A DNA stretch of 47,005 bases from Verrucomicrobiales bacterium (GTDB lineage Bacteria; Verrucomicrobiota; Verrucomicrobiia; Methylacidiphilales; JAAUTS01): positions 1-47,005 of the forward strand of contig JAISDC010000046.1 of NCBI GenBank assembly GCA_031265105.1, given 5' to 3'. The notes below the pieces were generated by a model. It searched no databases and had not been told where the DNA came from. It was given only the letters and a program-made list of their open reading frames with translations. A program made the translations under genes and the position numbers. Of the stretch, positions 1 to 47,005 are shown piece by piece (position 1 is the stretch's first letter; every line of letters starts with the position of its first letter).

Positions 1-1964
1 ATATCACTGCGGCCGTAGCCGGCATAGACTCCAAGATACAAGTCACTGTCAGCGCTGATGGTGAACTTGTGATCCGTGCCGAGATCGACGCCGTAGATGA
101 GTTGTTCGTAGGCTTTGCCCGATACTTGGTTGCTGACATTTAGCTGTTGGCCGTAGCTTCTTATCCAGATGTTTTCGATTATATGGAGCGCGGGCGTCCC
201 GCCCGCTGGCGGGCGGGACGCCCGCGCTCCATAGCGCAGTTCGCCCATACGTTTGAGCAAACTGTTTTGCTGCGCGAACCACATGGCTTGTTGGATGGCT
301 ACGCTGCTGTTGAGGACTGCGCCGGCGGGGCTGGTGCCGTTTTTGACGAAGTGGTCGCCGTCTTTGATGAGTTGGTCAATACCCCAGTCGATCGGATCCC
401 ATTGCCAGTGTTCGGTGCCGTCGCCGCTGACGATGCCGGGGAGGACTTGGTTTGGGTCGGCCTTGCCGTTGCCGGTGGTGTTGATGTGAACTGTGCCATC
501 ACCGTCAGCGGTGTCGATGACAGCGATGGAGCCGCCCTCACCGGTATCGCTGTTGACGCTGATGGTGAGGGTGCCGGTGTGAAGCATGTTGTCGAAGATG
601 ACTTCATAATCGCCGAGGTTCCACACGCCGTTGTTCTCACCGTAGTTGCCGTGGCTGTCTTTGTTGAAAGTCCACACGCTGTCGCTGCCGGTGATGAGGT
701 TGCCGCCATTGAAGCCGCCTTTGCCGGTGGCGCCGGTATCGAGGGTGACGGTGACGACGGCGGCGGCGTGTTGCGCGATGTCGCCGGCGAAGCTGCTGCC
801 GGGGCCGCTGACGGTGAGGTCGAGGGTGGCTGCACCGCTGCCGGTGACGGCGCTGGTGATGACGGCGCCGTTGCTGCCGCTGACGGTGAGGGTGGCGTTG
901 TCGTTGGCGATGAGGTCGCCGGTGAGGGTGCTGTGGTTCAGGTCGATGGTCAAGGTGGAGAGAACGTTACTTACGATATCGCCAGTCAGGGTGGAATCGG
1001 TGATGGCAACCGCCGCCGCGGGCGCGTTTTTTTGCCCGCTAACGATTTCCGTGTTGATGACGATGGGCGCGACCAGGTCGGCGCCGGTGATGGTGACGAT
1101 AGCGGCGGCGGCCATGTCCGCGCCGAAGTTCACGGCACTGTGCCCCGAGACCAAGGAACCGCCGTTGATGATCAAGACAGGGCGCTCGCTGGCAGAGCCG
1201 CTGAGGTTGATTGCCGCGACATTATCGGCGGTGATGTTCACGTTATTGAGCACGGCGGTGCCGGTGATGGCCAGATGGAACCCGCTGGCGGTATGACTTT
1301 TCGGGCCAGTGTGTACAATCACGGCGTCGGTGAGCGTGGCGAAGCTATCTTGACTGCGCACTCCGCGCCCGTCCGAGCCGGTGGCGGTGAAGGTGCCGCT
1401 GGTGATGGTCAGCGTGGAGCTGTTGTACACCGAAACGGCAAAAGCCGCATCCCCCGCCGTGGTGATGGTGACTCCGGACAAACTGACGCTGGCGGCGTCG
1501 GCCGTCACCCCATAACCGCCAAAGCCGGTAGTGGTGATGGTGACCCCGGATAAGTTGGCGTTGGCAAAGGAATTGACCAGCACCCCATGTCCCCGACTCC
1601 CGGTAGTGGTGATGGTGCCGCCGGTGATGGTCATGGTGGAGGAACCGAGCGCCGCCGCGCCGATGCCACTCTGCACCGGCCCGCCGGTGATGGTGGCATC
1701 GCGCAAGTCCAGCCGGCCCTGGTTATAAACGTAGGCGCCATAGTGTCCGTTATTGGCAACGGCGGTGCCGCTGAGGGTGAGGCGGGTGCCGCTGTACCAA
1801 GTCTCGCTGCCGCTGACTTGCAGGGCGGCGGTGCCGGAAATGCCTGCGTAGGTTTGGTCCGCTTCCGTCACGGTGCCGGAGGTGACGACTTTGTTTTCCG
1901 CGAGCACATTCAACGCGGAGGCGCCGAGGGCGCTGAGGATGAGGAGTGTTAGTTTGGGGTGCAT
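1..1964 (-). CDS. Autotransporter-family outer-membrane protein, paralog 1 (5' end complete, 3' end runs off the left window edge)
   Basis: ATG at 1964 gives signal peptide MHPKLTLLILSALGASALNVLA. This frame has no listed ORF in the track, consistent with it staying open to base 1 with no in-window stop. Gly/Thr/Ala/Asn-rich passenger. The last ~300 aa are near-identical to the full-length autotransporter at 13467..16013 (...NSLLKRMGELR...ENIWIRSYGQQ...YAGYGRSDI). Confidence 0.85.
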   Translation of the reverse strand, partial: MHPKLTLLILSALGASALNVLAENKVVTSGTVTEADQTYAGISGTAALQVSGSETWYSGTRLTLSGTAVANNGHYGAYVYNQGRLDLRDATITGGPVQSGIGAAALGSSTMTITGGTITTTGSRGHGVLVNSFANANLSGVTITTTGFGGYGVTADAASVSLSGVTITTAGDAAFAVSVYNSSTLTITSGTFTATGSDGRGVRSQDSFATLTDAVIVHTGPKSHTASGFHLAITGTAVLNNVNITADNVAAINLSGSASERPVLIINGGSLVSGHSAVNFGADMAAAAIVTITGADLVAPIVINTEIVSGQKNAPAAAVAITDSTLTGDIVSNVLSTLTIDLNHSTLTGDLIANDNATLTVSGSNGAVITSAVTGSGAATLDLTVSGPGSSFAGDIAQHAAAVVTVTLDTGATGKGGFNGGNLITGSDSVWTFNKDSHGNYGENNGVWNLGDYEVIFDNMLHTGTLTISVNSDTGEGGSIAVIDTADGDGTVHINTTGNGKADPNQVLPGIVSGDGTEHWQWDPIDWGIDQLIKDGDHFVKNGTSPAGAVLNSSVAIQQAMWFAQQNSLLKRMGELRYGARASRPPAGGTPALHIIENIWIRSYGQQLNVSNQVSGKAYEQLIYGVDLGTDHKFTISADSDLYLGVYAGYGRSD
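183..232. repeat. 50-bp perfect palindrome inside the autotransporter CDS (24-nt arms, 2-nt centre)
   Basis: ATGGAGCGCGGGCGTCCCGCCCGC-TG-GCGGGCGGGACGCCCGCGCTCCAT read directly. Each arm also contains its own mini-hairpin, GGGCG-TCC-CGCCC. It is translated in the gene frame as ...YGARASRPPAGGTPALH... Confidence 0.95.
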
Positions 1965-2003
1965 GTGGGTTCTTTCGATTGTTTGTGGTTGGTTGAAAAT
2001 TTG

Positions 2004-2065
2004 TTAATCCGCAGATTAACGCAGATGTTTTTAAATAATTTAATCTGCGAAAATCTGCGGATTAA
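2004..2065. repeat. Long hairpin element (about 23-bp stem, A/T-rich loop) in the autotransporter-1 leader
   Basis: TTAATCCGCAGATTAACGCAGAT ... AATCTGCGAAAATCTGCGGATTAA. That is 14 + 7 paired bases around a 2-nt mismatch, with loop GTTTTTAAATAATTT. The arm is a stuttered word (CCGCAGATT / AACGCAGAT). Confidence 0.85.
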
Positions 2066-3122: not shown

Positions 3123-3173
3123 TTTACAATTTGAGTTTTGAATTTTTTCCCAATCTGCCATTATGCACGGCTT

Positions 3174-3995
3174 ATGCCCGCGCCATTGCTTTATGAAACG
3201 CACATGCACACGCCGTTGTGCCGGCACGCTGACGGTCTGCCCGGCGAATACGCGGCGCGGGCGGCGCAGCGCGGCTTGAAAGGCATCATCGTCACTTGCC
3301 ACAGTCCGATGCCGGACGGTTTTTCCGCCCCGGTGCGGATGCGGCCGGAGCAGTTTGACGAGTATCTGGCGCTCATCGCCGCCGCTGAACGTGAGTGGCA
3401 TGGCCGCGTGGAGGTGCTGCCGGGGCTGGAGAGCGATTATTTCCCCGGCATGGAAAAGTGGCTGGAACAATTGCACGCCCGCGCGCCGTTCCATTACATC
3501 CTCGGCTCGGTGCATCCGCATATCCGGGAATATCTCGACCAATATTTCCGCGGCAACTGGCCGGAGTTTCACCGTCAGTATTATCGCGACCTCGCGGCGG
3601 CGGCGGAGACCGGGTTGTTCGACTGCCTGTCGCATCCCGACATCGTGAAAAACCAGGGCGCGGAATACTGGGACGTGGACGCGCTACTGCCGGACATCCG
3701 CCGCGCGCTCGACCGCATCGCCAGGACCGGCGTGGCGATGGAACTCAACACCTCCGGCCTGTTGAAGACCATCAAGGAAATGAACCCCGCGCCGGCGATT
3801 ATCCGCGAAATCCAGCAACGCGGCATCCCGATGACCGTCGGTGCCGACGCCCACGAGCCGTCGCGCGTCGCCGACCATTACGAGGAGGCGCTGACGCTGC
3901 TGCAAGAGTGCGGCTTTGCCTCCGTCAGCGTGTTCCTGCACCGGCAGCGGCGGGAGATTCCCATCGCCGACGCGCTGGCCAGCCTGCGCCGCTGA
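3174..3995 (+). CDS. PHP-domain histidinol-phosphatase family protein (HisJ/HisK type)
   Basis: ETHMHTPLCRHA N-terminal metal motif plus GSVHPH, SHPD and GADAH motifs. The track ORF begins at TTG 3138; the first ATG, at 3174, is used here. Confidence 0.8.
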   Translation: MPAPLLYETHMHTPLCRHADGLPGEYAARAAQRGLKGIIVTCHSPMPDGFSAPVRMRPEQFDEYLALIAAAEREWHGRVEVLPGLESDYFPGMEKWLEQLHARAPFHYILGSVHPHIREYLDQYFRGNWPEFHRQYYRDLAAAAETGLFDCLSHPDIVKNQGAEYWDVDALLPDIRRALDRIARTGVAMELNTSGLLKTIKEMNPAPAIIREIQQRGIPMTVGADAHEPSRVADHYEEALTLLQECGFASVSVFLHRQRREIPIADALASLRR

Positions 3996-4085
3996 CCGTC
4001 AGCTCGTTGCCGTTCAACTCCTCACCGTCAGCGGGTGTTGATTCTGTTTGCAATTTTCCGCGCCCGTTCCCATGCTGTGAGCCTT

Positions 4086-8767: not shown

Positions 8768-8779
8768 GCGCGGTCACGG

Positions 8780-9925
8780 TCAGCGGAACAGTTTCCCGAT
8801 TTCCGCGACGGCCCGCCGGTTCGCCCCCGGCTCGCCGAGTTGCTGAACCACCGCGCGCAACGCCGTCTTCATCTTCGCCGCCAGCTCGCGGTTGACGAGC
8901 AACCGCCGCGCCGCCGTTGCCAGGGCGTCGGGATTGGCGGCGCCTTGCAAAAATTCGGGCACGATTTTTTTGCCGGCAATCAGGTTGACAATGCTGATGG
9001 CGTCAAGCGTCACCAGCCGCCGGCCGATGAAGAAGGTCAGCGGGTTGGCGCGATACAGCACCAGCATCGGCAGATTCGCCAGCGCGCATTCCAGCGTGGC
9101 GGTGCCGGAGGCCACGAGCGCCAAATCCGCCTGGCTCAGATGCGTGAGCTGGTAGCCGCTGTAGATTTCCAGATTCAACAATTCCGCCCGCTGACGGTGA
9201 ATGAGTTCCTCGGCCAGCGCGCGACTGTCAGCGTCGTTGACCAGCAGTTGAAAACTCACGCCGGGCACCATCGGCGCCAGCCGGCGGCAGGTGTCCAGCA
9301 GCAGCGGCAGGTGCGCGGTGATTTCCTTGCGGCGGCTGCCGGGCATCAGTACCACCCGCTGACCGTCACGCGACTCGACCGGCGCCGCCGGCAATTGCCG
9401 CCAGCGGTCCAGCGCCGGATGACCGATCCAGACGGTGTTGAGCGCGGGCGCGCGCGCGGCGAACCAGTCCTGTTCGAACGGGAAAATCACCAGCAGCAAA
9501 TCGAGCAGCCGCTCCATTTTCGCGGCGCGGCCCGCCTTCCACGCCCACGCTTGCGGCGCGATGTAGTAGATGATTTTGGTGTCGGGCAACAGCGCCCGCG
9601 CCCGCTCCGCCAGACGCAAATTGAAGCCGGGAAAATCCACCAGGATGATGGCGTCGGGCCGCTGACGTTGCAAGTCGTCGAGCACGCGGCGGAACAACCC
9701 GCGGAATTTGCGCAGATTGAGCAACACGTCGGTGAGGCCGACCACCGCGTGTTGCGCCAGGTCAAACAACTGCCGCTGACCGGCGGCCTTCAACTGCGGC
9801 CCGCCGACGCCGAGAAACACGCCGTCCGGCCACGCCTTTTGCAATTCGCGCAGCAACTCCGCCGCGTGCCGGTCGCCGCTCGCCTCGCCGGCGATGAGAT
9901 AGAAAGTGGGAGCCGAGTTTGCCAT
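8780..9925 (-). CDS. lpxB: Lipid-A-disaccharide synthase
   Basis: 381 aa with FYLIAGEASGD N-terminus, VDFPGFNLRLA, PGSR and ASGTATLE, typical of GT19 LpxB. Confidence 0.92.
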   Translation of the reverse strand: MANSAPTFYLIAGEASGDRHAAELLRELQKAWPDGVFLGVGGPQLKAAGQRQLFDLAQHAVVGLTDVLLNLRKFRGLFRRVLDDLQRQRPDAIILVDFPGFNLRLAERARALLPDTKIIYYIAPQAWAWKAGRAAKMERLLDLLLVIFPFEQDWFAARAPALNTVWIGHPALDRWRQLPAAPVESRDGQRVVLMPGSRRKEITAHLPLLLDTCRRLAPMVPGVSFQLLVNDADSRALAEELIHRQRAELLNLEIYSGYQLTHLSQADLALVASGTATLECALANLPMLVLYRANPLTFFIGRRLVTLDAISIVNLIAGKKIVPEFLQGAANPDALATAARRLLVNRELAAKMKTALRAVVQQLGEPGANRRAVAEIGKLFR

Positions 9926-9928
9926 TCG

Positions 9929-10885: not shown

Positions 10886-11689
10886 TCATTCCTTCGCGAA
10901 AATCGTCACTCCCAACTCCGCTGACAGTGACGTGATTTCATCCCAACCCAGCAACAGCGTCCGGCCGGCCTCGACCACCACGGCGGAAATTTTTGACTCG
11001 GCGCAAATCCGCGCGGTGTCGGGGCCGATGACCGGCACATCGAAACGCGGATCCTGCCCCGGCTTGGACACCTTCACCAGCAGCGCCCCGCCGCCGCCAA
11101 GCGCGCCGCCGCGCCGGATGGTCGCGTTGGTGCCGTCGTGCCCCTCGACCGCCAGCACGGTGCCCTTTTTCACGACGACGGACTGGCCGATGTCCAGCCG
11201 GCTGATTTCCTTGGCGATGCCCCAGCCGAAATCCGCGTCGCGCGACTGGCGTTTGGACAACCGCGGCCCCGCGACCAGCCCCGCCGGCGGCAGAAATTTT
11301 TCCATGAACGTCGTGGCCGGCAGCAGCCGCACGCCGGCCCGCTCCAGCGCCCCCGCCACCGCGCCGAACAACGACTCGGCATTACGCTCCCGCAACGCCG
11401 CCAGCAGCAGCAGCGCCTTGAAATCCGGGCGAAAATCGAACAACCGGCCCGGCGTGATTTGCCCCGCCATGATGGCCTGGTCAACGGCAGCGTCCTTGAA
11501 AAAAGCCAGCAATTTACCGAGTTGCCCGACCTTCATCCAGCAGTGCCCGTCAGCCCTCGCCGTCAGCGCCGGGTCGGTCTCCCCCGTAAACGCCGCGATG
11601 ACGATTTGGCCCGCGAATTGGCGGCGCGCCTCGTCCAGCAACAGGCTGGGATAAAGACCTTTCCCGGCGATGATTCCCAAAACCGACAT
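10886..11689 (-). CDS. lpxI: UDP-2,3-diacylglucosamine pyrophosphatase LpxI (DUF1009)
   Basis: LGIIAGKGLYP N-terminus, ISRLDIGQSVVVKKGTVLAVEGHDGTNATIRRGG and DVPVIG match my memory of Caulobacter LpxI. ATG at 11689; the longer track ORF is an upstream shadow. Confidence 0.85.
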   Translation of the reverse strand: MSVLGIIAGKGLYPSLLLDEARRQFAGQIVIAAFTGETDPALTARADGHCWMKVGQLGKLLAFFKDAAVDQAIMAGQITPGRLFDFRPDFKALLLLAALRERNAESLFGAVAGALERAGVRLLPATTFMEKFLPPAGLVAGPRLSKRQSRDADFGWGIAKEISRLDIGQSVVVKKGTVLAVEGHDGTNATIRRGGALGGGGALLVKVSKPGQDPRFDVPVIGPDTARICAESKISAVVVEAGRTLLLGWDEITSLSAELGVTIFAKE

Positions 11690-11754
11690 TGAGTAACAGG
11701 TTAGAAGCCGCGCGCGAGTTAGCAATGCGGATTTTTCACCGCCGGGGCGCCGCC

Positions 11755-12648
11755 TCACTCCAATTCCGCCTTGCGCTGCATCAAAGTCCGCAAGCCCTGC
11801 GCGGGCGGTTTGCGGCAGTACAAAATTTGATACAACTCGCTGACGATGGGCGCGTTGATTTTTTGTCCTTGCGCCAACTCGTGCAACGCTTTCACGGTCG
11901 GGACGCCCTCGGCGGTGCCGGCGAGGTTGCGGAGAATTTCCGGCAACTCGCGGCCCCGGCCCAGCGCCTCGCCGACTTTGTGGTTGCGGCTTTCGGGACT
12001 GTAGGCGGTCAGCAGCAGGTCGCCCATGCCGCTGAGGCCGTAGATGGTTGCCGCGCGCGCGCCCTTGGCGGCGGCGATGCGGGCCATCTCCGCCAGCGCG
12101 CGCGTCATCAACGCGGCCATGGTGTTCTCGCCGAGACGCAAGCCCTGGCAAATGCCGCCCGCCAGCGCGTACACGTTTTTCAACGCGCCGCCGAGTTCGA
12201 CGCCGGTCAAATCGGTGCTGCGGTAGGCGCGGAAGACTTTGCCGTGCACGATTTTTTGCATCGTCACGGCCAGCGGCTCGCTGGCGGCGGCCACCACCAC
12301 CACCGTCGGCACGCCGGCCTGCACTTCCGCGGCGAGGCTGGGGCCGCTGACGGCGCCGACATCGTCCTTGCGCCACACTTCGCGGACGATTTCGCTGACC
12401 AGTTGGTGGGTGGATAGTTCGAGACCCTTGATGAGGCTGAACACGGGCGCTGACGGTGACGGGTAGAGTTCCAGCACTTTCCGCACGGCCTGGCACGGGA
12501 CGGCGAGAATCACGTAGTCGCCATGACCGTCAGCGGGCCACGCGGTGTCGCCGATGTCGAGGAAGCGCACCGCGTGACCGTTCAAGGTCAGCGCCTTGCC
12601 GAACGCCGAACCCCAGGCGCCGGCACCGATGATGGTGATGTTTTTCAT
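11755..12648 (-). CDS. gpsA: NAD(P)H-dependent glycerol-3-phosphate dehydrogenase
   Basis: MKNITIIGAGAWGSAFG Rossmann motif, GPSLAAEV and GGALKNVYALAGG. ATG at 12648. Confidence 0.92.
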   Translation of the reverse strand: MKNITIIGAGAWGSAFGKALTLNGHAVRFLDIGDTAWPADGHGDYVILAVPCQAVRKVLELYPSPSAPVFSLIKGLELSTHQLVSEIVREVWRKDDVGAVSGPSLAAEVQAGVPTVVVVAAASEPLAVTMQKIVHGKVFRAYRSTDLTGVELGGALKNVYALAGGICQGLRLGENTMAALMTRALAEMARIAAAKGARAATIYGLSGMGDLLLTAYSPESRNHKVGEALGRGRELPEILRNLAGTAEGVPTVKALHELAQGQKINAPIVSELYQILYCRKPPAQGLRTLMQRKAELE

Positions 12649-13301
12649 TGCTTGGCAAACCGGTTTTCCGTGCCGGCCAGCAGCCGTTTGATGTTCGCGC
12701 GGTGCGTCCAAATCACCATGAAGCACAGGAACAGCGCGAGGCCGGTGTACCATTGGAGGTCGGCGCGCGGCGCGTCCTGCCAGCGCAGCGAGGCGAACGC
12801 GGCCACCGGCAGCGCCACCGCCGCTGACAGTGAGGCGAGCGAGACGTAACGCGAGCCGTAAAACACGGCGGCCCACAGCGCCAGGCACACCAGCAGCGCC
12901 CACGGCAACAGCGCGCCGATGAACCCCGCTGACGAAGCCACCCCCTTGCCGCCCTTGAATCCGAGGTACGGGCAAAACGTGTGACCGAGGACAATCAGCA
13001 GGCCGCAGACCACGATGAACCACGGCGGCAGACTGTCAGCGTCAGCGCCGTGACACACCTGCGCCAGCGCCGCGCCTTTCAGGAACCACACCGGCAAAAA
13101 AGCCTTCAAAAAATCGCCGCCAAACACCGGCAGGCCGTATTTCGCGCCCAACACCCGCATGACATTAGTCGCGCCGATGTTCTTGCTGCCATGCTCCCGA
13201 ATGTCAATGCCGGCGATTTTTCCCGCGATAAACCCGAATGGAATCCCGCCAATCAAGAAACACGCCAAGGCAATGCCGCCGCCCGTAAACCAGTCAGTCA
13301 T
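12645..13301 (-). CDS. plsY: Glycerol-3-phosphate acyltransferase PlsY
   Basis: GSKNIGATNV and FKGGKGVA motifs, multi-TM. ATG 13301 (MTDWFTGGG). The stop overlaps the gpsA start by 4 nt. Confidence 0.9.
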   Translation of the reverse strand: MTDWFTGGGIALACFLIGGIPFGFIAGKIAGIDIREHGSKNIGATNVMRVLGAKYGLPVFGGDFLKAFLPVWFLKGAALAQVCHGADADSLPPWFIVVCGLLIVLGHTFCPYLGFKGGKGVASSAGFIGALLPWALLVCLALWAAVFYGSRYVSLASLSAAVALPVAAFASLRWQDAPRADLQWYTGLALFLCFMVIWTHRANIKRLLAGTENRFAKQ

Positions 13302-13388
13302 CCGGACAGTATAAAACACTCCCCCGCCCCGCGCAACGCAAAGCTGCTGATGGAGAACTCCGGCCATGAAGACGCGGGGAAAATTTCA

Positions 13389-13466: not shown

Positions 13467-16013
13467 TTAGAACTGGTGCCGATAGCCGGCGGTCAGTCCC
13501 CAGGGTTTGTCGTACTTGTCGCCGAAGGAGGCTTCGTAGTCGAGGTGGAGTTGATTGTCAGCGTCCAACTGCCAGATGAGGCCGCCGCCTACTTCGGCTC
13601 GTGCACCGTCAGTGTTGGCGCGGGTGGATTGATAGCCGTTTCTGATGGTGCCACCGCTGCTGATGGTTTCGACGCCGCTGACCTTGAGGTAGGGCTGGAG
13701 TGCGCCGCCGTTGGTGAGGTTGATGGTTCTGCCAAAGAGGCTGCCGATGCGGAGTTGCAAGGCGTCGAGGTCTTGGGCGCTGATGGTCAAGGGAGCGGCG
13801 CTGTAATCCTCAGCGAGGATGTGGAGGTAGTTCACTTGGAACTGAGGTTCGATGAACCAAGCATCGCTGAAGGTGAACTTTTTGCCGAGTTCGATACTGC
13901 CACCGAGGTTGACATCGCTGTAGTTGGCTTTGAGTTGGGTATTGGCGTAGGGGGCGTTTAGTTCGTTGTCAACGCTGGCGGCTTTGAAGGTAGCGTCGAG
14001 GTAGAAGCCGCTGCTGTGTAACCACGTGGCATAGAGACCGCCGTAGTAGGAGTTGAGTTTACCGTTAGCGCCGGGGGTGCGGTAATCTATATCACTGCGG
14101 CCGTAGCCGGCATAGACACCGAGATACAAGTCATTGTCAGCGTTGAGGGTGAATTTGTGATCAGTGCCGAGATCCACGCCGTAGATGAGTTGTTCGTAGG
14201 CTTTGCCAGCGACTTTGCCGCTGATGTTGAGTTGTTGGCCGTAGCTGCGGAGCCAGATGTTTTCAATTATATGGAGCGCGGGCGTCCCGCCCGCTGGCGG
14301 GCGAGACGCCCGCGCTCCATAGCGCAGTTCACCCATGCGCTTGAGCAGGCTGTTCTGCTGCGCGAACCACATGGCTTGTTGGATCGCCACGCTGCTGTTT
14401 AGGACGGCGCCGGCGGGGCTGGTACCTTGTTTGACGAAGTGGTCACCGTCTTTGATGATGGTGTCGATGCCCCAGTCGATGGGATCCCATTGCCAGTTCT
14501 CCGTGCCGTCGCCGGTGACTTTGCCGGGGAGGACTTGGTTGGGGTCGGCTTTACCGTTGCCGGTGGTGTCGATGTGGACGGTGCCTGCACCGTCAGCGGT
14601 GCCGGTGATGGTGATGGAGCCGCCTTCGCCGGTGTCGGTGTTGACGCTGAGGTTGACGGTGCCGGTGTGGGTCATGTTGTCGAAGGTGACGTTGTAGTCG
14701 CCGATGTTCCACACGCCGTGGTTTTCGCCGTAGTTGCCGTGGCTGTCTTTGTTGAAAGTCCACGCGCTGTCGCTGCCGGTGATGAGGTTGCCGCCGTTAT
14801 AGCCGCCTTGGCCGGTGGCGCTGTTATCGAGGGTGATGGTGACGGCTGCGTCGTCGTTTTGGGTGATGTCACCGAGCAGGGTGCTGTTGGTGCCGCTGAC
14901 GGTGAGGTTGAGAGTGCCGGAGCCGCCACCGATGACGTCGCCGTACAAGTCGGTGTTGTTGGCGGTGACGTTGACGATGGCGCTGCCGCTCACGTTGACA
15001 GCATTGCTGCCGTCATCCGTGGTACGCACGTCGTTGAGTATAATTTGGTGGTCAGTGCCGCCGCTAACACCGATTTTACTACCGTCCGGATTGGTGACGC
15101 TGATGGAGCCGCCGTTCATTTCCACGGCGGCGGTGACGGCGGACATTACGATGCCGGCGTTGCTGCCGATGAGGTCAACGTCAACCAGGACGGCCCGCTG
15201 GTTGGTACCGCTGTGATAGCTGTTAGCCATGACGGCGATGGCGCCTTGCAGGGTGCCGCCGATGACGGTGACAAAAGCGTTGTCCTCTTCCATCAGCAAA
15301 GCCGACGCCTCGCTTTTGACATTCAGGTTCCTGACGGTGCCCGACGAGCCGGCGTTGGCGTAGAGGCCGTATGACATGGTGCCGGCGGTGGTGATGGTCA
15401 CGTCGGTCAGGTCGTAGGTCGCCCTGCTGGCCCAAATGCCATGCGCATTAAGCACGCCGGACGTGTTGATGGTCAGCCCGGTGCCAGTCAGCGTGGCGTC
15501 GCCGGTGAGTTGAACCGCGGCGCCGGCGAAGTAGCCCTGGGTTTTGGTAAAGTTGACGGTCACGTTTTGCACCTGGCCGATGGCGCTGCCGGTGAGACTC
15601 AGCGCGTAGGTTATGTTTTCCACCCTGGTGGCGGTGGCGCTGATTTGCACGTCGGTCAAACTGACGGTGGCTTGGTCGGTGGCGAACACCGCGTACTTGT
15701 AATTAGTTCTGTCCCAGTCGCTGGTGGTGAGGGTGACGGTGCTGCTGTGCAAGTCCAGCCGCGCGGTGCCGTCCACGTAAGCGCCGTAACCGCCGCGCCC
15801 GCTGGTGTTGCCGTTGTCGGCGATGAGGGTGACGGCGGTGCCGCTGTAGGCGCCCTGATTGGTGACCCACAGGGCGGCTTCGCTGGCGGTGGCTTGGTAG
15901 GTGGCGCCGCTTTCGGCTTCGGTGGAGCCGTCAACGACTTTGGTGGCGGCGAGTACGCTCAACGCGGAGACGCTGAGGGCGCAGAGGATGAGGAGTTTGA
16001 GTTTGGGGTGCAT
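13467..16013 (-). CDS. Autotransporter-family outer-membrane protein, paralog 2 (full length, 848 aa)
   Basis: Signal peptide MHPKLKLLILCALSVSALSVLA and a repetitive Gly/Thr/Asn passenger. RMGELR...IWLRSYG junction, then a C-terminal beta-barrel of alternating hydrophobic strands ending ...WGLTAGYRHQF (terminal aromatic residue). Confidence 0.9.
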   Translation of the reverse strand: MHPKLKLLILCALSVSALSVLAATKVVDGSTEAESGATYQATASEAALWVTNQGAYSGTAVTLIADNGNTSGRGGYGAYVDGTARLDLHSSTVTLTTSDWDRTNYKYAVFATDQATVSLTDVQISATATRVENITYALSLTGSAIGQVQNVTVNFTKTQGYFAGAAVQLTGDATLTGTGLTINTSGVLNAHGIWASRATYDLTDVTITTAGTMSYGLYANAGSSGTVRNLNVKSEASALLMEEDNAFVTVIGGTLQGAIAVMANSYHSGTNQRAVLVDVDLIGSNAGIVMSAVTAAVEMNGGSISVTNPDGSKIGVSGGTDHQIILNDVRTTDDGSNAVNVSGSAIVNVTANNTDLYGDVIGGGSGTLNLTVSGTNSTLLGDITQNDDAAVTITLDNSATGQGGYNGGNLITGSDSAWTFNKDSHGNYGENHGVWNIGDYNVTFDNMTHTGTVNLSVNTDTGEGGSITITGTADGAGTVHIDTTGNGKADPNQVLPGKVTGDGTENWQWDPIDWGIDTIIKDGDHFVKQGTSPAGAVLNSSVAIQQAMWFAQQNSLLKRMGELRYGARASRPPAGGTPALHIIENIWLRSYGQQLNISGKVAGKAYEQLIYGVDLGTDHKFTLNADNDLYLGVYAGYGRSDIDYRTPGANGKLNSYYGGLYATWLHSSGFYLDATFKAASVDNELNAPYANTQLKANYSDVNLGGSIELGKKFTFSDAWFIEPQFQVNYLHILAEDYSAAPLTISAQDLDALQLRIGSLFGRTINLTNGGALQPYLKVSGVETISSGGTIRNGYQSTRANTDGARAEVGGGLIWQLDADNQLHLDYEASFGDKYDKPWGLTAGYRHQF
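14271..14320. repeat. 50-bp palindrome inside the autotransporter-2 CDS (one arm mismatch)
   Basis: Same sequence as 183..232 except A at 14304. In the gene frame that change is synonymous (TCC to TCT, Ser). Confidence 0.95.
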
Positions 16014-16116: not shown

Positions 16117-16232
16117 CCATTAAATGGAGGCGCAGATGACGCTGACAATCGGCGTATTGCCGGATGGGGAATGAAGTGGGTAAAACTCTGCGGGGAAATT
16201 AAGGAATCAGGGCAAGAGTCATAATCAGCGGT

Positions 16233-16311
16233 GAGCGCGTGAGCGCGTGAGCGCGTGAGCGCGTGAGCGCGTGAGCGCGTGAGCGCGTGAGCGCGTGAGC
16301 GCGTGAGCGCG
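16233..16311. repeat. Octanucleotide tandem repeat (GAGCGCGT) x 9.9
   Basis: Nine perfect units plus 7 nt counted directly, 220 bp upstream of the autotransporter-2 start codon. Confidence 0.97.
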
Positions 16312-17306: not shown

Positions 17307-17492
17307 AAATTCACACAGCAAGGATAATTTGCGGATTTTTATGATCTATTTGTTATGGCATCTCAATACGCTGATCATGTATCTCGCCTGCGCAAATTCC
17401 TCTTCCGTGAGGAAGGTAACTCGCTGACGCGGAAACGAACCCCACTAACTAAATCCGCAAACTGCTTGCCATGCGCTGACGATGAGGGTAGC

Positions 17493-18134: not shown

Positions 18135-18263
18135 TCCGTGTATTGGGTGCCGCAAACAGGTCAACTTCAGCGCCGAATTTTTTTAAAAAAATATTTTAAA
18201 AACCGGTTGACATGATTTATCAGGTAGTTCAACATAACCAAATAAACGAAAAGGAGCAAATCA

Positions 18264-19082: not shown

Positions 19083-19110
19083 ACAAAAAAACAAGAAAAG
19101 CGAGGCTGAA

Positions 19111-28271: not shown

Positions 28272-28281
28272 TTTAACCGTC

Positions 28282-29676
28282 ATGAATTCCACCACTGAAG
28301 AACACGGCTCCGTTGCCACGCCAAATCTCTATACCGTTGGCACGCTGAAATACGACAAGCGCGCCATCGTGATTTTGTTTGGCTGGCTGCTATGGGGTGA
28401 TTTTGCCTTCAATTTTTTCGAGTCGGTTTTCGGGCGGTTCATGCCGTTGTATCTCAAGGAGCTGAACGCTTCCAATGTCTTTATCGGCATTACCACCGGC
28501 AGCGTCGCTGGCTTGGTCAATATCCTCTTTCTGCCCAATATCAGCCAATGGAGCGACCGCTTGCGTGCCCGGCTGGGACGGCGTATTCCCTTTCTTTTGA
28601 TTGTCACTCCCCTGACCACACTATCCCTGCTGGCCATCGGATTCGCGCCGGAAATCGGCGCCTTGACGCACCGGTATTTGCCGTCATTTTCCTGGCTAAC
28701 CCAGACCTCCTTGGTGCTGTCGCTGTTGTGCCTGTTCACGGTTGCGTTTCATTTTTTCAACATGATTTTGGTCAATGTCTTTAACTGGCTGGTGCGCGAT
28801 GTGGTGCCGCAAGTCCTGATGGCCCGCTTTCTCACCTGGTTTCGCGTCGTCGGAACGATGGCGGCCATGTTGTTCCTTTGGTATGTCTTTCCCATCATGC
28901 TTTCCCATCGTAAGCTAACCTTCCTCCTGGTCGGATTTTTTTATCTCGCCGCCTTTCTATTGATGTGCTGGAAAGTAAAGGAAGGCGATTATCCTGAGCC
29001 TGAATCCCGTGGTCCCGCTGATAATTTTTTGCTTCGTTTCATCACTTATTTTCGGGACTGCCTGGGCATTCCGCTTTATCGCAATTTTTTTCTCGTTCAT
29101 GTCCTGTTTGTAATCGGCAATGTTTGCGCCAATTACTCGTTTCTCACTCTTTATGCCCGGCATACCTTGCGCTTGGAAATGGAGGCCATGGGGCAAATCT
29201 ACGCCTATGCCGCCCTGTTGAGCGCCGTGGTTTATATTCCAATCGGCTGGCTGTGCGGCAAGATTGGTGAAATGAAGGTTACGCTGGCCAGTCTGGTCAC
29301 TTTGGTTATCGTGGCCATCCTGGCTTATTATTTGGTAACCGATCAAACCAGTTGGCTGGTCTATAGTCTCGTATCCTCGCTGCCCGCGGTGGGGTGGACG
29401 CTCGGTTCGCTCACGGTCAGCATGCGTTTGTTTCCGGAGAAAAGTTTCGGCCAGTTCGCGTCGGGCATCAATGTCTTCAGTTGCGGCGGCATGATTGTTG
29501 GCAACTATATTTGCGGAGAATACATGGATTTCGTGGATAGTAATTACCGGCTTATTTTCTGGTGGGTCGCGGGTTTTTGCACAGTGGCGATTGTGCCGAT
29601 GGTGGCTGTTTATCGCGGCTGGAAACGACACGGCGGCCCCGATCACTACGTGGCGCCGTCGCCGATACGGGAATAA
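28282..29676 (+). CDS. MFS/GPH-type sugar:cation symporter
   Basis: 464 aa with about 12 hydrophobic segments and [14 protein letters not shown] after TM2 (the D-R-x-G-R-R motif of MFS/GPH transporters). Confidence 0.8.
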
Positions 29677-29680
29677 AATA

Positions 29681-30886
29681 ATGAAACCTGCTCCTCCTGC
29701 TATTCTGCCTTGCCTTCAGGCCCGCCTCCAGGCTCAGGAAAATCTATACGCGCTGCGCAACCAAGTTTCCTCCGCGGCCTGGTCCAATGGGATTTTTGAC
29801 CGTTACGAACATCCGGTGCTCACCGCCGCGCATGTCCCGCTTGCCTGGCGTTTCGATTTTAATCCGGCCACCAATCCGCGCGGCCTCGAACGACTCGGCA
29901 TCAATGCGGTGTTAAATCCCGGCGCCATTGAACTCAACGGCCGTTTTTATCTGATCGCCCGCGTCGAGGGCGCCGACCGCAAATCGTTTTTTGCCGTCGC
30001 GGAAAGCGTTTCCGGCATTGATCAGTTCCGGTTCCATGCAGATCCGATTTTGCTCGACCAAACCGACGATCCCGATGTCAACGTCTATGACATGCGGCTG
30101 GTGAAACACGAGGACGGCTGGATCTACGGGTTGTTTTGCACCGAACGACGCGATCCCACGGCTCCGCAGTTCGACACCAGCAGCGCGGTCGCGCAATGCG
30201 GCATTGTACGTACTCGCGATTTGAAAAACTGGGAAAGACTGCCCGACTTCAAATCATCCTCCGCCCAGCAGCGCAATGTGGTGCTGCATTCCGAATTCGT
30301 CAACGGTCGCTATGCCTTCTACACCCGTCCGCAAGATGATTTCATCTCGACCGGCTCCGGTGGCGGCATCGGCTGGGCTTTGTCCGCGTCAATGAATCCG
30401 GCGGTAATCGGTGCCGAGGAAATCATGGATCCGCGGGTTTATCACACCGTCAAGGAGCTTAAAAACGGACAAGGGCCGGCCCCCTTGCGCACTTCCGCCG
30501 GCTGGCTGCACCTGGCTCACGGCGTGCGCAACACCGCCGCCGGGCTGCGTTACGTGATCTATGCGTTGCTTTCCGATTTGCGCGAACCCGCCAAAGTGTT
30601 GCGGCGTCCCGCCGGCTATTTGATTGCTCCCGAAGGCGAGGAGCGAATCGGCGACGTAGCCAATGTCATTTTCTGCAACGGCGCCATCGCGCGGGAAAAC
30701 GGCGACGTTTACATCTACTACGCCTCATCGGACACCCGCGTTCACGTTGCCACCAGCACCGTGGAGCGTCTGCTTGACTACGTCATGAACACCCCGGCAG
30801 ACCCGCTTATTTCTTCCGAATGTGTGCGTCAGCGCCGGTCATTGATTCGCGCTAACCGTGAATTTTTGGCCGCCGCCCATTTATGA
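29681..30886 (+). CDS. GH130 beta-mannoside phosphorylase (4-O-beta-D-mannosyl-D-glucose phosphorylase-like)
   Basis: ATG 29681. [92 protein letters not shown] and [15 protein letters not shown] closely match my memory of characterised GH130_1 enzymes. Confidence 0.88.
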
Positions 30887-31956: not shown

Positions 31957-32733
31957 TCAGGCAACCGTCGCGGTATTTTTCGCGGCGGCCAGGGCTTTTA
32001 GCCACGAACCGAAGAAGCGCGGTTTGCAGGCGGCCGCGAACAGCGCCGGGGCGTGTCTGCGCACCTCGCCGCTTTGCAGCCGTATTCCCTGGCGCTGCAA
32101 GTCACGGATGCCGTCAATCACCATCGCACTGGTCCAGCGCCGGCGGCGGCGGATGCTGGCGTAATCAATCCCGGCTTTCTCCACCGCGGCGCCCCAGTTG
32201 CCGAACCGCCGGCGGGCGGTGGCGATCAGCGGGTTGGCAGTTTCATCCATGGTCTTCGAACTGAGATCCACGCCTTGCTCCTTGAGCCGGCGGATTTCGT
32301 CCAGAATGGTTTCCTCATTCCAGGAGCGATAACGGTAAATTTCGTTCGGCGCCAAACCGGCTGCCGTCAGCGCCGTTTTCCACGAGCCGAAATGCTTCGG
32401 GCGAATCGCCGCATAGACCATGCTGTTATAGGAACTGAGCATCATCGCGCGGAACGAAAGATCGGCACCCTGTTTGAATAACTCCTGAATCTGCGCCACG
32501 ATGCCGTCCTTGGTCCAATGCTGGTACTTGCGGACTTCATTGTATTGGATGCCGGCTTTTTCAACGGCGGCCTGCCAGCTGCCGTAGTAGCGGATGCCGG
32601 CCGCGAGCAATTCCTGGAAATTCTTGCGCACATGATGGGAATAGAGCGGCTCGCCGCGCAAATTCCATTGCCTGATTTCTTCCAGCACGATTGCTGCCGA
32701 CCATTTTCTATTTTTACGTGAACGTGTTTTCAT
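31957..32733 (-). CDS. Protein made of four tandem ~62-aa FGSW repeats (homing-endonuclease-associated-repeat-like), no catalytic domain
   Basis: Four units W(S/T/N)xxxIxxxIxxLxxxGxxL...(Y/F)G(S/N)WxxAxxxAG(I/L), starting at WSAAIVLEEI, WTKDGIVAQI, WNEETILDEI and WTSAMVIDGI. Confidence 0.75.
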   Translation of the reverse strand: MKTRSRKNRKWSAAIVLEEIRQWNLRGEPLYSHHVRKNFQELLAAGIRYYGSWQAAVEKAGIQYNEVRKYQHWTKDGIVAQIQELFKQGADLSFRAMMLSSYNSMVYAAIRPKHFGSWKTALTAAGLAPNEIYRYRSWNEETILDEIRRLKEQGVDLSSKTMDETANPLIATARRRFGNWGAAVEKAGIDYASIRRRRRWTSAMVIDGIRDLQRQGIRLQSGEVRRHAPALFAAACKPRFFGSWLKALAAAKNTATVA

Positions 32734-33910: not shown

Positions 33911-33946
33911 AAAAAAGCCGCTGACAGTGACTGCACTGTCAGCGGC
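33911..33946 (-). terminator. Intrinsic terminator built from an inverted pair of the abundant CCGCTGACAGTG motif
   Basis: Minus strand reads GCCGCTGACAGTG-CAGT-CACTGTCAGCGGC followed by TTTTTT. It lies 21 nt after the stop of the SGNH gene at 33967. Confidence 0.8.
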
Positions 33947-33966: not shown

Positions 33967-34725
33967 TTATTGCAAATATTTGTCAATATACGGCTGAATG
34001 GCGTCAGCCCAGATCTGGTAACCGCTGGCGTTCGGATGCAAAAAGTCGGGCATGATGTCCTTGCCCAGCGTGCCGTCGGGTTGCAGGAATTTGTCGCTGA
34101 AATCCACGAACACCACCTTGTCGCCGTCGTCCAGTTTGGCGATGGCGGCGTTGACTTCCTTGATTTTCGCGCGCCAGGGATGGTCGGCCTTTTCGTTGCG
34201 CGGGAAAATGGCTTGCAGCAGAATCACCGCGTCGGGGCAGAGCTTGCGGTATTCCGCGACTATCGCCGTGACCCCGTCGATGATATCCTCGGCCGAGTTG
34301 CCGATGTTGTTGGTGCCGATCATGATGGCAACCAGCTTCGGTTGCAGGCTGCTCATCTGGCCCTGCGACAGGCGCCACAGCACGTTTTCCGTGCGGTCGC
34401 CGCCGATGCCGAAGTTGAACGCGCCGTATTTCGCGTAGCGCTCCTGCCAGATTTTCTGCCCGCCGCCGTGCCAGCCGTCGGTGATGGAATCGCCGTCGAA
34501 TACCAGCTTGATGGACTGCGTGCGGTTTTGCGTCTGGGCGGCGTCATTGCTGCGTTTCACCCGCTCCACCCATTCGGCGCGCGGATAGGGGAAGACGGTG
34601 ACCTTGACACCGGCCGGACGGAACGGCAGTTCGGCGGGCATCGGCCACACTTTGGGATTGTTTTGGGCGTTAACGGCGACTACGCTCACGAGCGCCACGA
34701 CGGAGGTAAGAAGGAATTTTTTCAT
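33967..34725 (-). CDS. SGNH/GDSL hydrolase, secreted (paralog of 16473..17276)
   Basis: FDGDSITDGW, GIGGDRTENVLWRL, MIGTNN and DFLHPN blocks. ATG 34725 (MKKFLLTSVVALVSVVAVNA) with GGAAGGA upstream. Confidence 0.88.
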   Translation of the reverse strand: MKKFLLTSVVALVSVVAVNAQNNPKVWPMPAELPFRPAGVKVTVFPYPRAEWVERVKRSNDAAQTQNRTQSIKLVFDGDSITDGWHGGGQKIWQERYAKYGAFNFGIGGDRTENVLWRLSQGQMSSLQPKLVAIMIGTNNIGNSAEDIIDGVTAIVAEYRKLCPDAVILLQAIFPRNEKADHPWRAKIKEVNAAIAKLDDGDKVVFVDFSDKFLQPDGTLGKDIMPDFLHPNASGYQIWADAIQPYIDKYLQ

Positions 34726-34811
34726 TCCTTCCAATTTAATGAATCGCCGCTGATGGTCAACTCTCAAATTGCGCTGACCGTCCGCGCTGTCTCCGAGATT
34801 TTCGTCAGCGG

Positions 34812-35588
34812 TCAATGGTCGGTTGGCTGAAAGAATCGTTGTTCCGTCGGAATGGCCAGGGTGGTTTCCAGTTTTTGAATATGTTCCTTGACCATATCCC
34901 AGCGATGCTGGTCAACGCCATGTTCCTGGCAACTCTGCCACAATTGTCGCCAATACTCGTAAGCTGCCTGGTCTTGCTTCGCCTTCTCAAGCATAAGACC
35001 GACAGATCTTTCCAGATATAACGGCGCCTTCGGCCGCTGCAACGCTTCTTTATAACATTCCGCGGCTTGCTCGTAATTACCCAAACGCCGCCAATACAGG
35101 TCGCCCAGGCGCTGGTATAAAATCGGCTTTTCGGGAATCACCCGGATGCCGCGCTCCAGCAAATCCTTGCCCGCCTCAATCCACCTTCTGGCATCATGCT
35201 TGCGCCGGTCGATGCCTCCCTTGACCGGGCCGTGCTCGACCGCCACGCTCGCGTTCCACGCCAGATTCCACGCCCCCATGTCCCAAAAAAACGCCACCCG
35301 CGGCTGCAACAGCACGCACATTTCCGCCAGCGCCGCCACCCGCTCCCATTCCTGTTCCTGCCAAGCGCTGGTCAGCGAAAGCCACAGCGAATCCGCCGCC
35401 AGGCCGCGAAACCCGCCCAACGCCGCCATGGTGAAGCCCTGTCCCAGACTGTCACGCAATTGGTAACTCATCGGCAAGTCCTGCCCCACCATCACCACTT
35501 TGCGCTCGGCGGCCAGCCGGTTTTCCCAACCGACTTTTCCCGCGCCCCAGATGACGATCAGCGCCAGTGCCAGCAACCGGAGTTTCAT
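34812..35588 (-). CDS. Membrane-anchored TPR-like hypothetical protein
   Basis: N-terminal hydrophobic anchor MKLRLLALALIVIWGAG and helical-repeat-like segments (LGDLYWRRLGNYEQAAECYKEAL). 4-nt overlap with the permease gene. Confidence 0.6.
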   Translation of the reverse strand: MKLRLLALALIVIWGAGKVGWENRLAAERKVVMVGQDLPMSYQLRDSLGQGFTMAALGGFRGLAADSLWLSLTSAWQEQEWERVAALAEMCVLLQPRVAFFWDMGAWNLAWNASVAVEHGPVKGGIDRRKHDARRWIEAGKDLLERGIRVIPEKPILYQRLGDLYWRRLGNYEQAAECYKEALQRPKAPLYLERSVGLMLEKAKQDQAAYEYWRQLWQSCQEHGVDQHRWDMVKEHIQKLETTLAIPTEQRFFQPTDH

Positions 35589-37580: not shown

Positions 37581-37826
37581 GGCGACAGATCATAAAAGCG
37601 CGCTACACTGCTGGCAACATGAAACCCGCCCGCCGGAAAGTTGTCCGACCGAAAAAAAACGCCGCTGACCGTGACTGTGCTCCCACCAGGCGCGCCGTCC
37701 GCGCCGAGTTGTACCGGCCGGAGAACCTCGAAAAAGCCCGCCGTCTTGACCGCGGCCCGATTGTATAAAGCGCCGCTGACGATGTCTCGAAATCAATCCG
37801 CCTGATTTTCGGTCGGCGCTTGCCGC

Positions 37827-40904: not shown

Positions 40905-40986
40905 GGGAAAAATAATCTAGGGACGAACCAGCCCCAGCGCAAAGCAAAACTCCACCCGCTGACCGTGCCCGCCGGATTGGTCACCG

Positions 40987-41805
40987 TCAGCGCCCGCGAC
41001 CGCCGCCCCAGCCGCCGCCGCGTCCGCCTGGGCCGCCTGGACCACCGCCACCGCCACCGCCGGGACGGATTTCGGCGTCAATGCCCCGCGATTCCTGCTC
41101 CACGGCTTTCATGTAATCGGGATAGGTTTTCCACCATTCGCGGCGCTCCTGCAAATAATCAAACAACGGCAGATTGGTGTTCAGCCGGCTGAGCAAGGTC
41201 TCGCGCTCGGTCAGCATGGCCTGGATTTTCTCGCCGTCGGGGCGTTTGGCGATGGCGGCCAGCACGTCGATTTTCATCATCTGGTACAACGCGGCATCCT
41301 GCGGCACCAGGCTTTCCTCGCGACCATACCAAAACTCGCCGGCTTGAATCGCCGCATATGCCTTGTCAAAATATTCCAGGATGCCCTCGGGAGTCTGGTT
41401 GTCGGCGGAACGCTGTTTGCGGAACACTGCCGGTGACCGGCGCGACAGGGATTGTTTCATGAGAAACAGGTATTCCTCGGGCTTGATGCCGTACAGCCGG
41501 TTGGCGGTCTCGCCGAGGATGGGATTGACATAGGCGTCAATTTCCAGGATGCGCTTGGTAGCCTTGTCGTTCTGTTCCTGGACTTTCTTGACCAGTTCAC
41601 TGACATTGTTGACGGCTTGCATGCCGAGCGTGAACTCGTCGTTGGCATCCTGGTTTCGTGCCGTGCCGCTGACGGTGGTCGTGCCGCTGCCAGTGGTCGC
41701 GGCGGTGGCGCTGCCAGTGGCGGCGGCCTTGCCGCGATAATCCTGCCCGTGCGCCGGCGGCCAGGCCAGGGCCAGCAATCCCAGTATCAGCGTAATCGGT
41801 TTCAT
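40987..41805 (-). CDS. Hypothetical secreted protein with Gly/Arg-rich C-terminal tail
   Basis: Signal peptide MKPITLILGLLALAWPPAHG and tail RPGGGGGGGPGGPGGRGGGWGGGRGR. 4-nt overlap with the upstream gene. Confidence 0.6.
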   Translation of the reverse strand: MKPITLILGLLALAWPPAHGQDYRGKAAATGSATAATTGSGTTTVSGTARNQDANDEFTLGMQAVNNVSELVKKVQEQNDKATKRILEIDAYVNPILGETANRLYGIKPEEYLFLMKQSLSRRSPAVFRKQRSADNQTPEGILEYFDKAYAAIQAGEFWYGREESLVPQDAALYQMMKIDVLAAIAKRPDGEKIQAMLTERETLLSRLNTNLPLFDYLQERREWWKTYPDYMKAVEQESRGIDAEIRPGGGGGGGPGGPGGRGGGWGGGRGR

Positions 41806-44859: not shown

Positions 44860-44922
44860 ACGAAACAGTCTATTTAAGATTTGACGTTATAGGAAACAAG
44901 GCGGTAAACAAGATGTTTCTTT

Positions 44923-46773: not shown

Positions 46774-46842
46774 TTGCTCGACGCGCTGGCGGTCCGTCGC
46801 CGTAACCGGCCCGTCCGTTAGCGTAAAAAAACTGCGTCAGCC

Positions 46843-47005
46843 CTGGGAGCGCCGTCGTCCCCGACGGCTGGTTCACCTGCCAAGGTCAGTCAGCCGGCTG
46901 GAAGCCGGCGCTCCCAGTGCTGGCGCCGGGGTCTACACAAGGAGCGCCGACTGTACTGGGAGCGCCGGCATCCTTGCCGGCAGACTAACCTTGGCAGGTG
47001 AACCA
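46843..47005. repeat. Composite nested-hairpin repeat element (may continue beyond the window)
   Basis: 18-bp perfect outer inverted repeat TGGTTCACCTGCCAAGGT (46869-46886) / ACCTTGGCAGGTGAACCA (46988-47005). Three full copies of the box CTGGGAGCGCC (46843 +, 46907 -, 46956 +), each fused to its own 6-7-bp GC hairpin (46851-46868, 46893-46909, 46964-46981), plus a partial box at 46939. Confidence 0.85.

Follow-up and report, generated by a model that had tools for sequence, protein, structure and literature searches.

Genome-wide uptake sequences are known from two proteobacterial families only, according to a survey of 2025. Published DNA uptake enhancing sequences (DUES) number from hundreds to thousands per genome and make up as much as ~2% of the chromosome. 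In the Neisseriaceae and the Pasteurellaceae, about half of the uptake-sequence copies lie in terminators; the cognate receptor is ComP in Neisseria, and ComN is predicted for the Pasteurellaceae. Here, we describe an over-represented word with the consensus g-n-CGCTGAC-n-n-T-G-a in the genome of an uncultured Verrucomicrobiales bacterium, contained in a stretch of 47,005 bp with 59.3% GC (the window, i.e., this whole stretch). From its sequence behaviour in the window and in related contigs, ~130 kb in all, it can be considered a candidate uptake-type word in a new phylum, with its own pair of dialects.

The word resembles the DNA uptake sequence (DUS) of the Neisseriaceae (Frye et al. 2013, PMC3630211; Helsem et al. 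2025, preprint, 10.1101/2025.10.24.684340), which is also short and asymmetric, occurs about once per kb on both strands, in permitted gene frames and between genes, and accounts for 1-2% of the genome. Inverted pairs of DUS can act as terminators, as an inverted pair of the word appears to do here, and in both systems related lineages differ at one or two positions (dialects). The sequences are unrelated (GCCGTCTGAA for DUS vs CGCTGACNNTGA here), the host belongs to the Verrucomicrobiota and not to the Proteobacteria, only ~3% of the copies are in terminators, and no ComP-like receptor is present in the sampled DNA. The uptake signal sequence (USS, AAGTGCGGT) of the Pasteurellaceae, in its Hin-type and Apl-type forms (Findlay & Redfield 2009, PMC2817400; Bakkali 2007, PMC1939737), shares with the word a core accompanied by a weaker flanking segment, a mostly coding location that distorts codon and dipeptide usage, enriched one-mismatch variants, two dialects partly at homologous positions and an accumulation in temperate phage DNA. 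The USS is again unrelated in sequence, its flank is AT-rich, while the flank here is GC-rich and bipartite, and the host described here is uncultured. With the consensus g-n-CGCTGAC-n-n-TGA, the word has no core in common with DUS or USS and, if it is an uptake sequence, would be an independent invention. The two USS types are reportedly treated by Redfield et al. in 2006.

Two further groups of abundant words have to be considered. The highly iterated palindrome HIP1 (GCGATCGC) of cyanobacteria (Xu, Lawrence & Durand 2018, PMC5861425; Elhai 2015, PMC4390886) is likewise a hyper-abundant oligomer (15- to 300-fold) of coding and non-coding DNA, with lineage variants and a conservation between close genomes above background. 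HIP1 is, however, an 8-bp palindrome linked to orphan methyltransferases, whereas the word here is asymmetric, spans ~14 bp and shows no depletion of its deamination neighbours. Chi, the FtsK-orienting polar sequences (KOPS) and the architecture-imparting sequences (AIMS) are species-specific, asymmetric and over-represented, as is the word, but they are skewed with respect to replication and about ten times rarer. In the literature, nothing relevant was found on the word itself or on uptake sequences in Verrucomicrobia.

Copy number and architecture of the word

The + strand of the window contains 72 copies of GCTGAC and 81 of GTCAGC. This exact total of 153 is close to the ~145 that had been counted by hand in the initial annotation, and the composition-only expectation of ~30 given there was reproduced. 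A third-order Markov model expects 74 copies of the hexamer, a value that is itself raised by the motif. The heptamer CGCTGAC/GTCAGCG is present in 117 copies between 1 and 47005 (62 on the + and 55 on the - strand; 2.5/kb), while the same type of model expects 32. The extended core CGCTGACNNTG is matched by 66 of these copies, corresponding to 1.4/kb and to 1.5% of the bases in the window.

The logo over all copies consists of g at position -3, C at -1, GCTGAC, a position that is not T, and then g, T, G and a. Information is confined to positions -3 to +10 and is essentially zero in the flanks, so that the full motif comprises ~14 bp and recurs about once per 400-700 bp. The uninformative flanks indicate separate, independent occurrences and no dispersed repeat family, in agreement with the initial annotation. 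REP or MITE elements (repetitive extragenic palindromes or miniature inverted-repeat transposable elements) were rejected, because there is no longer conserved unit, the flanks are devoid of information and 88% of the copies are inside genes.

The variant GCTGAC-N-GTGAC had been listed as occurring exactly 12 times and had been read as a phased direct repeat of TGAC that could serve a tandem-binding protein. All 12 positions were confirmed, with a 13th copy at 42, but as a general property of the motif the tandem site is ruled out by its presence in just 13 of the 153 hexamer copies, and the sister dialect described below lacks such a repeat.

Coding context and codon-preserving expectations

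The gene table, built from open reading frames (ORFs), a codon score and Pfam matches, contains 41 genes that cover 94% of the window. Most copies of CGCTGAC (103/117, 88%) lie fully within genes, 11 are fully intergenic and three straddle a stop codon. The density is nevertheless higher in non-coding DNA (3.68/kb; 11 copies in 2,990 bp of 49% GC) than in coding DNA (2.34/kb). Three shuffles served as coding null models: synonymous, synonymous with dinucleotides kept, and codon order. They predict 24.8, 45.3 and 11.4 copies, respectively, compared to the 103 observed (57 sense, 46 antisense; z = 13-26). For CGCTGACNNTG, 55 coding copies stand against 6.5, 15.9 and 1.3 in the same order, and z ranges from 13 to 44 when both words are taken together.

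The sense copies are divided almost equally between the frames xxC-GCT-GAC (29) and xCG-CTG-ACn (28), the antisense frames hold 26, 12 and 8 copies, and the sixth frame, CGC-TGA-C, is found only at gene ends, where it provides the stop codon (3993, 8780 and 40987). GCT accounts for 8.7% of all Ala codons in the window genes but for 43% of those ahead of GAC, and in 29 of the 33 GCT-GAC pairs the preceding codon has C as its last base. An excess is also seen for the dipeptides Leu-Thr (122 vs 85 expected) and Val-Ser (83 vs 59). The word distorts coding choice instead of following it.

The possibility that codon usage, amino-acid composition, a single repeated protein motif or a family of dispersed repeats accounts for the excess can be regarded as practically negligible. 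Part of it does reside in the recurrent peptides Leu-Thr and Ala-Asp, and two paralogous autotransporter genes have some copies in common. The excess survives all three shuffles, extends over five frames and both strands, is stronger outside genes and comes with flanks that carry no information, and relatives of equal GC content and codon usage lack the word. The earlier view that the motif is not a by-product of codons or peptides is borne out by the k-mer counts against shuffled coding DNA, by the bent codon choice and by the non-coding density; a codon or peptide artefact as candidate was discarded on the shuffles and on that density.

Lineage restriction and a sister dialect

Relatives were collected by searches with LpxB, Ffh, GlmS and ComEC, of which Ffh and GlmS provide a graded series. 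A look-up of proteins exactly identical to GlmS of the window gave no match. The window shares 98% LpxB identity with the metagenome-assembled genome (MAG) Verrucomicrobiales bacterium Gx481_bin192, which includes JAISBF010000042.1 and whose contig (L001) is 97% identical to the window at the DNA level and contains 2.96 CGCTGAC/kb. The word is also abundant in L081 (same species; 2.2/kb), L083 (Ffh 81% identical; 1.7/kb), L212 (GlmS 81% identical; 3.4/kb) and L213 (found via ComEC; 2.6/kb); with the window and L001 included, the range is 2.2-3.4/kb for all of these but L083. By comparison, 78 other LpxB loci with GC contents of 38-63% have at most 0.4/kb. Neither dialect word is enriched in L002, L003 and the Ffh relatives L084, L087 and L088 (Ffh identity ~75% or less), the latter with CGCTGAC at ≤0.4/kb. 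L086 (Ffh 84% identical) shows neither dialect, but with 2.6 kb it is too short to call.

Searches for the inverted pair CGCTGACNNTG-N(0-30)-CANNGTCAGCG gave no further carriers. Among the matches listed from the metagenome scan (L090-L209) there are almost only chance matches and repeat arrays, and none of the 105 loci from IMG/VR shows a convincing motif field. One IMG/VR contig of 66% GC (L251) contains 24 CGCTGAC in 13.7 kb, but lacks the TG extension.

Two contigs from different samples, L082 (Ffh 86% identical to the window; JGI sample 3300042616) and the 367-kb L210 (Ga0466692_171932; GlmS 82% identical; sample 3300042591), represent a sister lineage. In these, CGCTGAC is at background (0.2-0.3/kb) and its coding count does not differ from that after synonymous shuffling (z about 0). 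The strongest over-representation is instead that of CGCTAAC/T (CGCTAAY), with 2.1-2.9/kb and 44 and 29 coding copies in L082 and L210, compared to 4.7 and 4.4 after synonymous shuffling (z = 13-21). The rarest Leu codon, CTA, is found inside CG-CTA-A in 14 of 20 and 8 of 14 cases in the L082 and L210 genomes, respectively. The dialect logo reads g, n, CGCTAA, Y, g, g, C, g, A. Both logos share one 14-bp architecture, in which two positions are changed (G5 to A and T10 to C), both by transitions. The question raised in the initial annotation, i.e., whether sister genomes share the word, is answered by its common presence on the lineage contigs and by a two-position variant in the sister lineage.

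The dialects meet at homologous sites in the ffh-rpsP-KH-trmD-rplS operon, where CGCTGAC/T of the window, L081 and L083 is aligned with CGCTAAC/T of L082 at three positions. Among the in-place swaps, CCG-CTG-ACG to CCG-CTA-ACG is an example of a synonymous one. These three sites show that part of the motif set was rewritten in place. Homologous conversion rests on them, because alignments of glmS and glgC contain almost no sites common to both dialects.

The nearest outgroup is a MAG (L002; records P0015/P0132) that bears the alphaproteobacterial name 'Blastochloris sp.'. Outside the clade, however, no sequences are closer to LpxB, Ffh and GlmS of the window than those of this MAG (57-70% identity), and judged from these sequences the MAG is probably mis-binned or mis-named.

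Distribution along the window and foreign DNA

On the + strand of the window, CGCTGACNNTG starts at 425, 806, 878, 2099, 3889, 5343, 9189, 9660, 10003, 10648, 10919, 11838, 12448, 12822, 13676, 14894, 17474, 20165, 20435, 21290, 21646, 21936, 22468, 23982, 30991, 31774, 33919, 36588, 37663, 37774, 40620, 40957, 41667, 43025 and 45257. The copies on the - strand (starts of CANNGTCAGCG) are at 44, 500, 2923, 4023, 5778, 8434, 8775, 10741, 12583, 13037, 14132, 14588, 19987, 20453, 22290, 23773, 26361, 31858, 33458, 33815, 33934, 35942, 37427, 39274, 40602, 40982, 42291, 42318, 43503, 45080 and 46223.

The longest stretch free of CGCTGAC on both strands measures 4.46 kb (26372-30827; gap 26365-30828) and contains GH38, DUF386, MFS and GH130 genes. 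With random placement, the 95th percentile of the largest gap is 2.9 kb. The GC content at third codon positions (GC3) of the sugar-utilisation genes in the gap is 0.59-0.67 vs 0.75-0.88 in motif-rich genes. A second stretch (18941-19990; gap 18935-19991) is free of GCTGAC/GTCAGC on both strands and lies over an AT-rich ORF of 343 aa (18982-20013; GC 0.46), which adjoins an LPD3-domain gene. The ORF has a single motif copy at its very end and no family match. The absence of the hexamer from the AT-rich core, noted in the initial annotation, is borne out between 18935 and 19991.

LPD3 is a large polyvalent protein-associated domain. The regions 17355-20013 and 31957-32733 encode the LPD3 protein, a LamG-like protein, the AT-rich ORF and an HNH_repeat protein, and they are probably foreign DNA.

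Whether the word marks native versus foreign DNA, as had been suggested, is answered in two ways. The sugar operon with low GC3 and the AT-rich ORF support the idea, but a phage-like island on the related contig L213 (12681-22265), which adjoins comEC, carries 17 CGCTGAC in 7.3 kb, a chromosomal density. The genes of this island encode a small terminase, a D5-type primase (D5_N/DUF5906), an LPD3 protein and an amidase/virion-like protein. Temperate phages of the Pasteurellaceae accumulate USS (PMC6776037). The word density of the island is for this reason compatible with uptake, and it does not discriminate between the hypotheses.

Conservation and turnover of sites

Between the two strains that are 97% identical, 74 of 79 motif sites are conserved, whereas random windows of nine positions are conserved at a fraction of 0.79 (p = 3e-4). 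Each shared site enters this count twice, once per genome, and the numbers therefore correspond to ~42 independent sites, of which 37 are shared. At ~80% nucleotide identity, most motif positions differ, even within one dialect. The combination of close-strain conservation and turnover at larger distance fits a drive-mutation balance, and the site data fit a force that makes and keeps copies anywhere, rather than a function bound to particular positions.

The same data bear on the proposal that an abundant chromosomal protein binds the word, which would serve nucleoid organisation, compaction or another density-dependent function and be kept by selection, as has been suggested for HIP1; the dialect would then reflect co-evolution of the protein with its sites. 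A bipartite footprint of ~14 bp with two unspecified positions does resemble a protein site, the dialect implies a recogniser that co-evolves, and conservation above background in close strains is the argument that has been used for selection on HIP1. The presence of the word in the phage-like island is also in line with such a protein. It is less easily reconciled with the loss of most positions at ~80% identity, even within a dialect, or with the cost in codons and amino acids: we know of no nucleoid protein that imposes a specific word of 11-14 bp more than once per kb inside coding DNA. This explanation is regarded as unlikely, but ranks second after an uptake sequence.

Orientation and neighbouring words

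The strand ratios of the word in six loci of 4-47 kb are 62:55, 29:28, 8:5, 7:7, 28:19 and 26:17 (binomial p = 0.22-1.0). The absence of a strong strand bias, noted earlier for the window, extends to the five other loci and argues against words of the Chi, KOPS and AIMS type, which are strongly co-oriented with replication. A Chi-like signal for the control of recombination or nucleases, or a 'self' tag for a defence or repair nuclease, would explain a word that is lineage-specific, over-represented and asymmetric, and the full density in the phage-like element could reflect selection to look like self. Besides the missing orientation bias, the word is about tenfold denser than Chi in E. coli, which occurs about once per 4.5 kb. 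A signal of this type is considered very improbable.

The one-mismatch neighbours of CGCTGAC are informative about its origin. The transition neighbours TGCTGAC (observed/expected 1.30), CGTTGAC (1.85), CGCTGAT (2.35), CACTGAC (1.05) and CGCTAAC (1.02) are not depleted; a clear deficit is seen only for CGCGGAC (0.39), the partner reached by a synonymous transversion. As with USS, a number of one-mismatch variants are mildly enriched. The lack of depletion among deamination-type neighbours argues against a repair-driven, HIP1-like origin, in which the word would be a by-product of biased repair or mutation, e.g., by very short patch (VSP)-like correction tied to a non-palindromic methyltransferase, as in the Elhai model for HIP. 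Such a process would be lineage-specific, could change together with the methyltransferase specificity and would act on all resident DNA, prophage-like islands included; that both dialect differences are transitions also agrees with it. In addition to the neighbour ratios (1.0-2.35), the information span of ~14 bp, which exceeds typical methyltransferase targets, and the small VSP effect on CCWGG in E. coli count against it. The repair origin is improbable, if slightly less so than a Chi-like signal.

Copies at gene ends

The motif provides the TGA stop codon of three genes, as described earlier. CGCTGAC at 3990 supplies the stop (3993-3995) of the PHP gene (3138-3995, +); the inverted GTCAGC at 3998 overlaps this copy and a further GTCAGCG follows at 4027, so that three copies occupy the gene end and the intergenic DNA between 3990 and 4033. 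The copy at 8779-8785 gives the stop (8780-8782) of lpxB (8780-9925, -). The right-hand copy of an inverted pair at 40957-40992 is the stop (40987-40989) of a 272-aa ORF on the - strand (40987-41805), at whose 3' end the pair forms an imperfect, weaker hairpin.

The inverted pairs reported at 3991-4003, 33917-33946 and 40957-40992 were all recovered. The pair at 33917-33946 forms a terminator-like hairpin on the - strand, with a perfect 13-bp stem (GCCGCTGACAGTG/CACTGTCAGCGGC), a 4-nt loop and a TTTTTT tail on that strand. It is located just downstream of a GDSL lipase gene (33967-34815, -) and is the best-scoring terminator-like site between 30 and 47 kb, with an RNA folding energy of -26.9 kcal/mol. 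An intergenic copy on the + strand, CGCTGACCGTG (37663-37673), lies in the spacer between rplS (ending at 37885) and the acylphosphatase gene (starting at 37580), ~210 bp downstream of rplS. It is directly preceded by an A-run, which follows it as a T-run on the - strand, and no clean hairpin was found at this copy.

Among the motif pairs, a single clean terminator (33917-33946) is accompanied by one or two weaker hairpins at gene ends. Convergent pairs are not in overall excess (12 observed vs ~10 by our own estimate from site counts). The role as terminator arms proposed in the initial annotation applies to about two to three places, but is not general among the 117 copies.

Uptake genes on motif-rich contigs

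Homologues of ComEC/Rec2 (PF03772 and PF13567) are encoded on motif-rich contigs of both dialects, at 10001-12265 of L213 and 3794-6076 of L210. Both proteins contain the DUF4131 and Competence domains, and no Lactamase_B domain was detected in them. The word occurs 11 times within the comEC gene of L213 itself. On either contig, a YebC/TACO1 gene is located just upstream of comEC; in L213, a beta-lactamase-family gene lies between the two. ComEC is widespread and nearly universal, and its presence is for this reason weak support for uptake. The search for competence genes suggested by the initial annotation yielded ComEC on the lineage contigs, but no pilin, ComEA or DprA in the ~130 kb sampled.

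A proposed uptake-type self-recognition sequence

Several of the traits that characterise DUES were found for the word, i.e., a copy number above the codon-controlled expectation, symmetry with respect to strand and frame, restriction to a clade, and dialects. The combination is that of an asymmetric 10-14-bp word with more than one copy per kb and no orientation bias, which is costly within genes, denser between them, confined to one clade and present as a two-position variant. To our knowledge, biased DNA uptake followed by recombination, as for DUS and USS, is the sole established mechanism that gives this whole combination, and a reading of this kind is ranked first for that reason. That g-n-CGCTGAC-n-n-T-G-a is a lineage-specific self-recognition or uptake sequence of the DUS/USS type appears about evenly balanced between right and wrong on the sequence data at hand. 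The initial annotation had arrived at a similar comparison, of which the sequence-level behaviour stands and now includes the two-position dialect CGCTAAY..CGA, while the tandem half-site and a general role in termination do not.

The mechanism proposed here starts from a component that would bind DNA sequence-specifically, belong most likely to the DNA-uptake machinery and prefer DNA that bears the word. Repeated uptake of conspecific DNA and homologous recombination would spread new copies wherever coding constraints allow (molecular drive), and this spread would continue until ~1.5% of the chromosome consists of the motif. In the sister lineage, the recogniser may have changed its specificity at two positions, for G5 (to A) and T10 (to C), after which the genome would have been rewritten to CGCTAAY-g-g-C-g-A, partly at the same sites. 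We infer that drive, and not selection on a chromosomal function, maintains the word.

Several observations weigh against an uptake sequence. The uptake role itself is one that we infer for an uncultured organism known only from metagenomes, and the sampled DNA of the lineage consists of metagenomic contigs, not whole genomes. In these ~130 kb, no pilin, ComEA, DprA or receptor candidate is present, no prepilin N-terminal motif was found in any of the lineage loci searched, and the ComEC that is present is common to most bacteria. Terminator-like inverted pairs hold just ~3% of the copies. The spacing of the copies is clustered rather than even (coefficient of variation 1.29), and the phage-like island next to comEC has the same density of the word as the chromosome.

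It is also conceivable, at a probability well below that of an uptake sequence, that the word belongs to an undescribed, orientation-independent system of 'self' recognition or chromosome organisation in Verrucomicrobiota and is not an uptake signal. A cytoplasmic protein would then read the ~14-bp word about every 0.5 kb, its specificity would drift between sister lineages, and resident phage-like elements would be selected or driven to bear the word of their host.

Other features of the window and related contigs

A compact lipid cluster at 10886-13367 consists of lpxI (10886-11689), gpsA (11755-12648) and plsY (12645-13367), with the plsY start overlapping the gpsA end by ATGA. The mechanically listed ORFs 10886-12496 and 11755-13023 over-extend these genes.

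The two paralogous autotransporter genes mentioned above are located on the - strand at 3-1964 (partial) and 13467-16013 (PF03797). About 215-300 bp upstream of the ATG of each, there is a perfect tandem array of an octamer (TGAGCGCG on the + strand, CGCGCTCA on the - strand), with seven copies at 2190-2245 and ten at 16232-16311 (16227-16311 as called by Tandem Repeats Finder). The orthologous site in the sister strain L001 (2752-2775) has three copies only, and the copy number therefore differs between strains, a variation that resembles phase-variable contingency loci. A palindromic octamer, AGTGCACT, is absent from the window but present in seven copies near the contig end of L081 (139-391), spaced by multiples of 21 bp.

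Implications

An abundant word that is accompanied by a two-letter variant in a sister lineage is a pattern so far known only from the uptake sequences of Neisseria and Haemophilus relatives. Should the word not be an uptake signal, it would be a second unexplained hyper-abundant word beside HIP1, with a clean two-position dialect to exploit. The genomes of the two dialects represent a natural experiment, in which a protein with differing DNA-contacting residues would be a candidate receptor. In the case of an uptake sequence, the word would provide a sequence handle for binning and for linking phages and islands in this lineage to their hosts, and it would mean that uptake-type self-recognition has evolved repeatedly in bacteria, outside the Proteobacteria as well.

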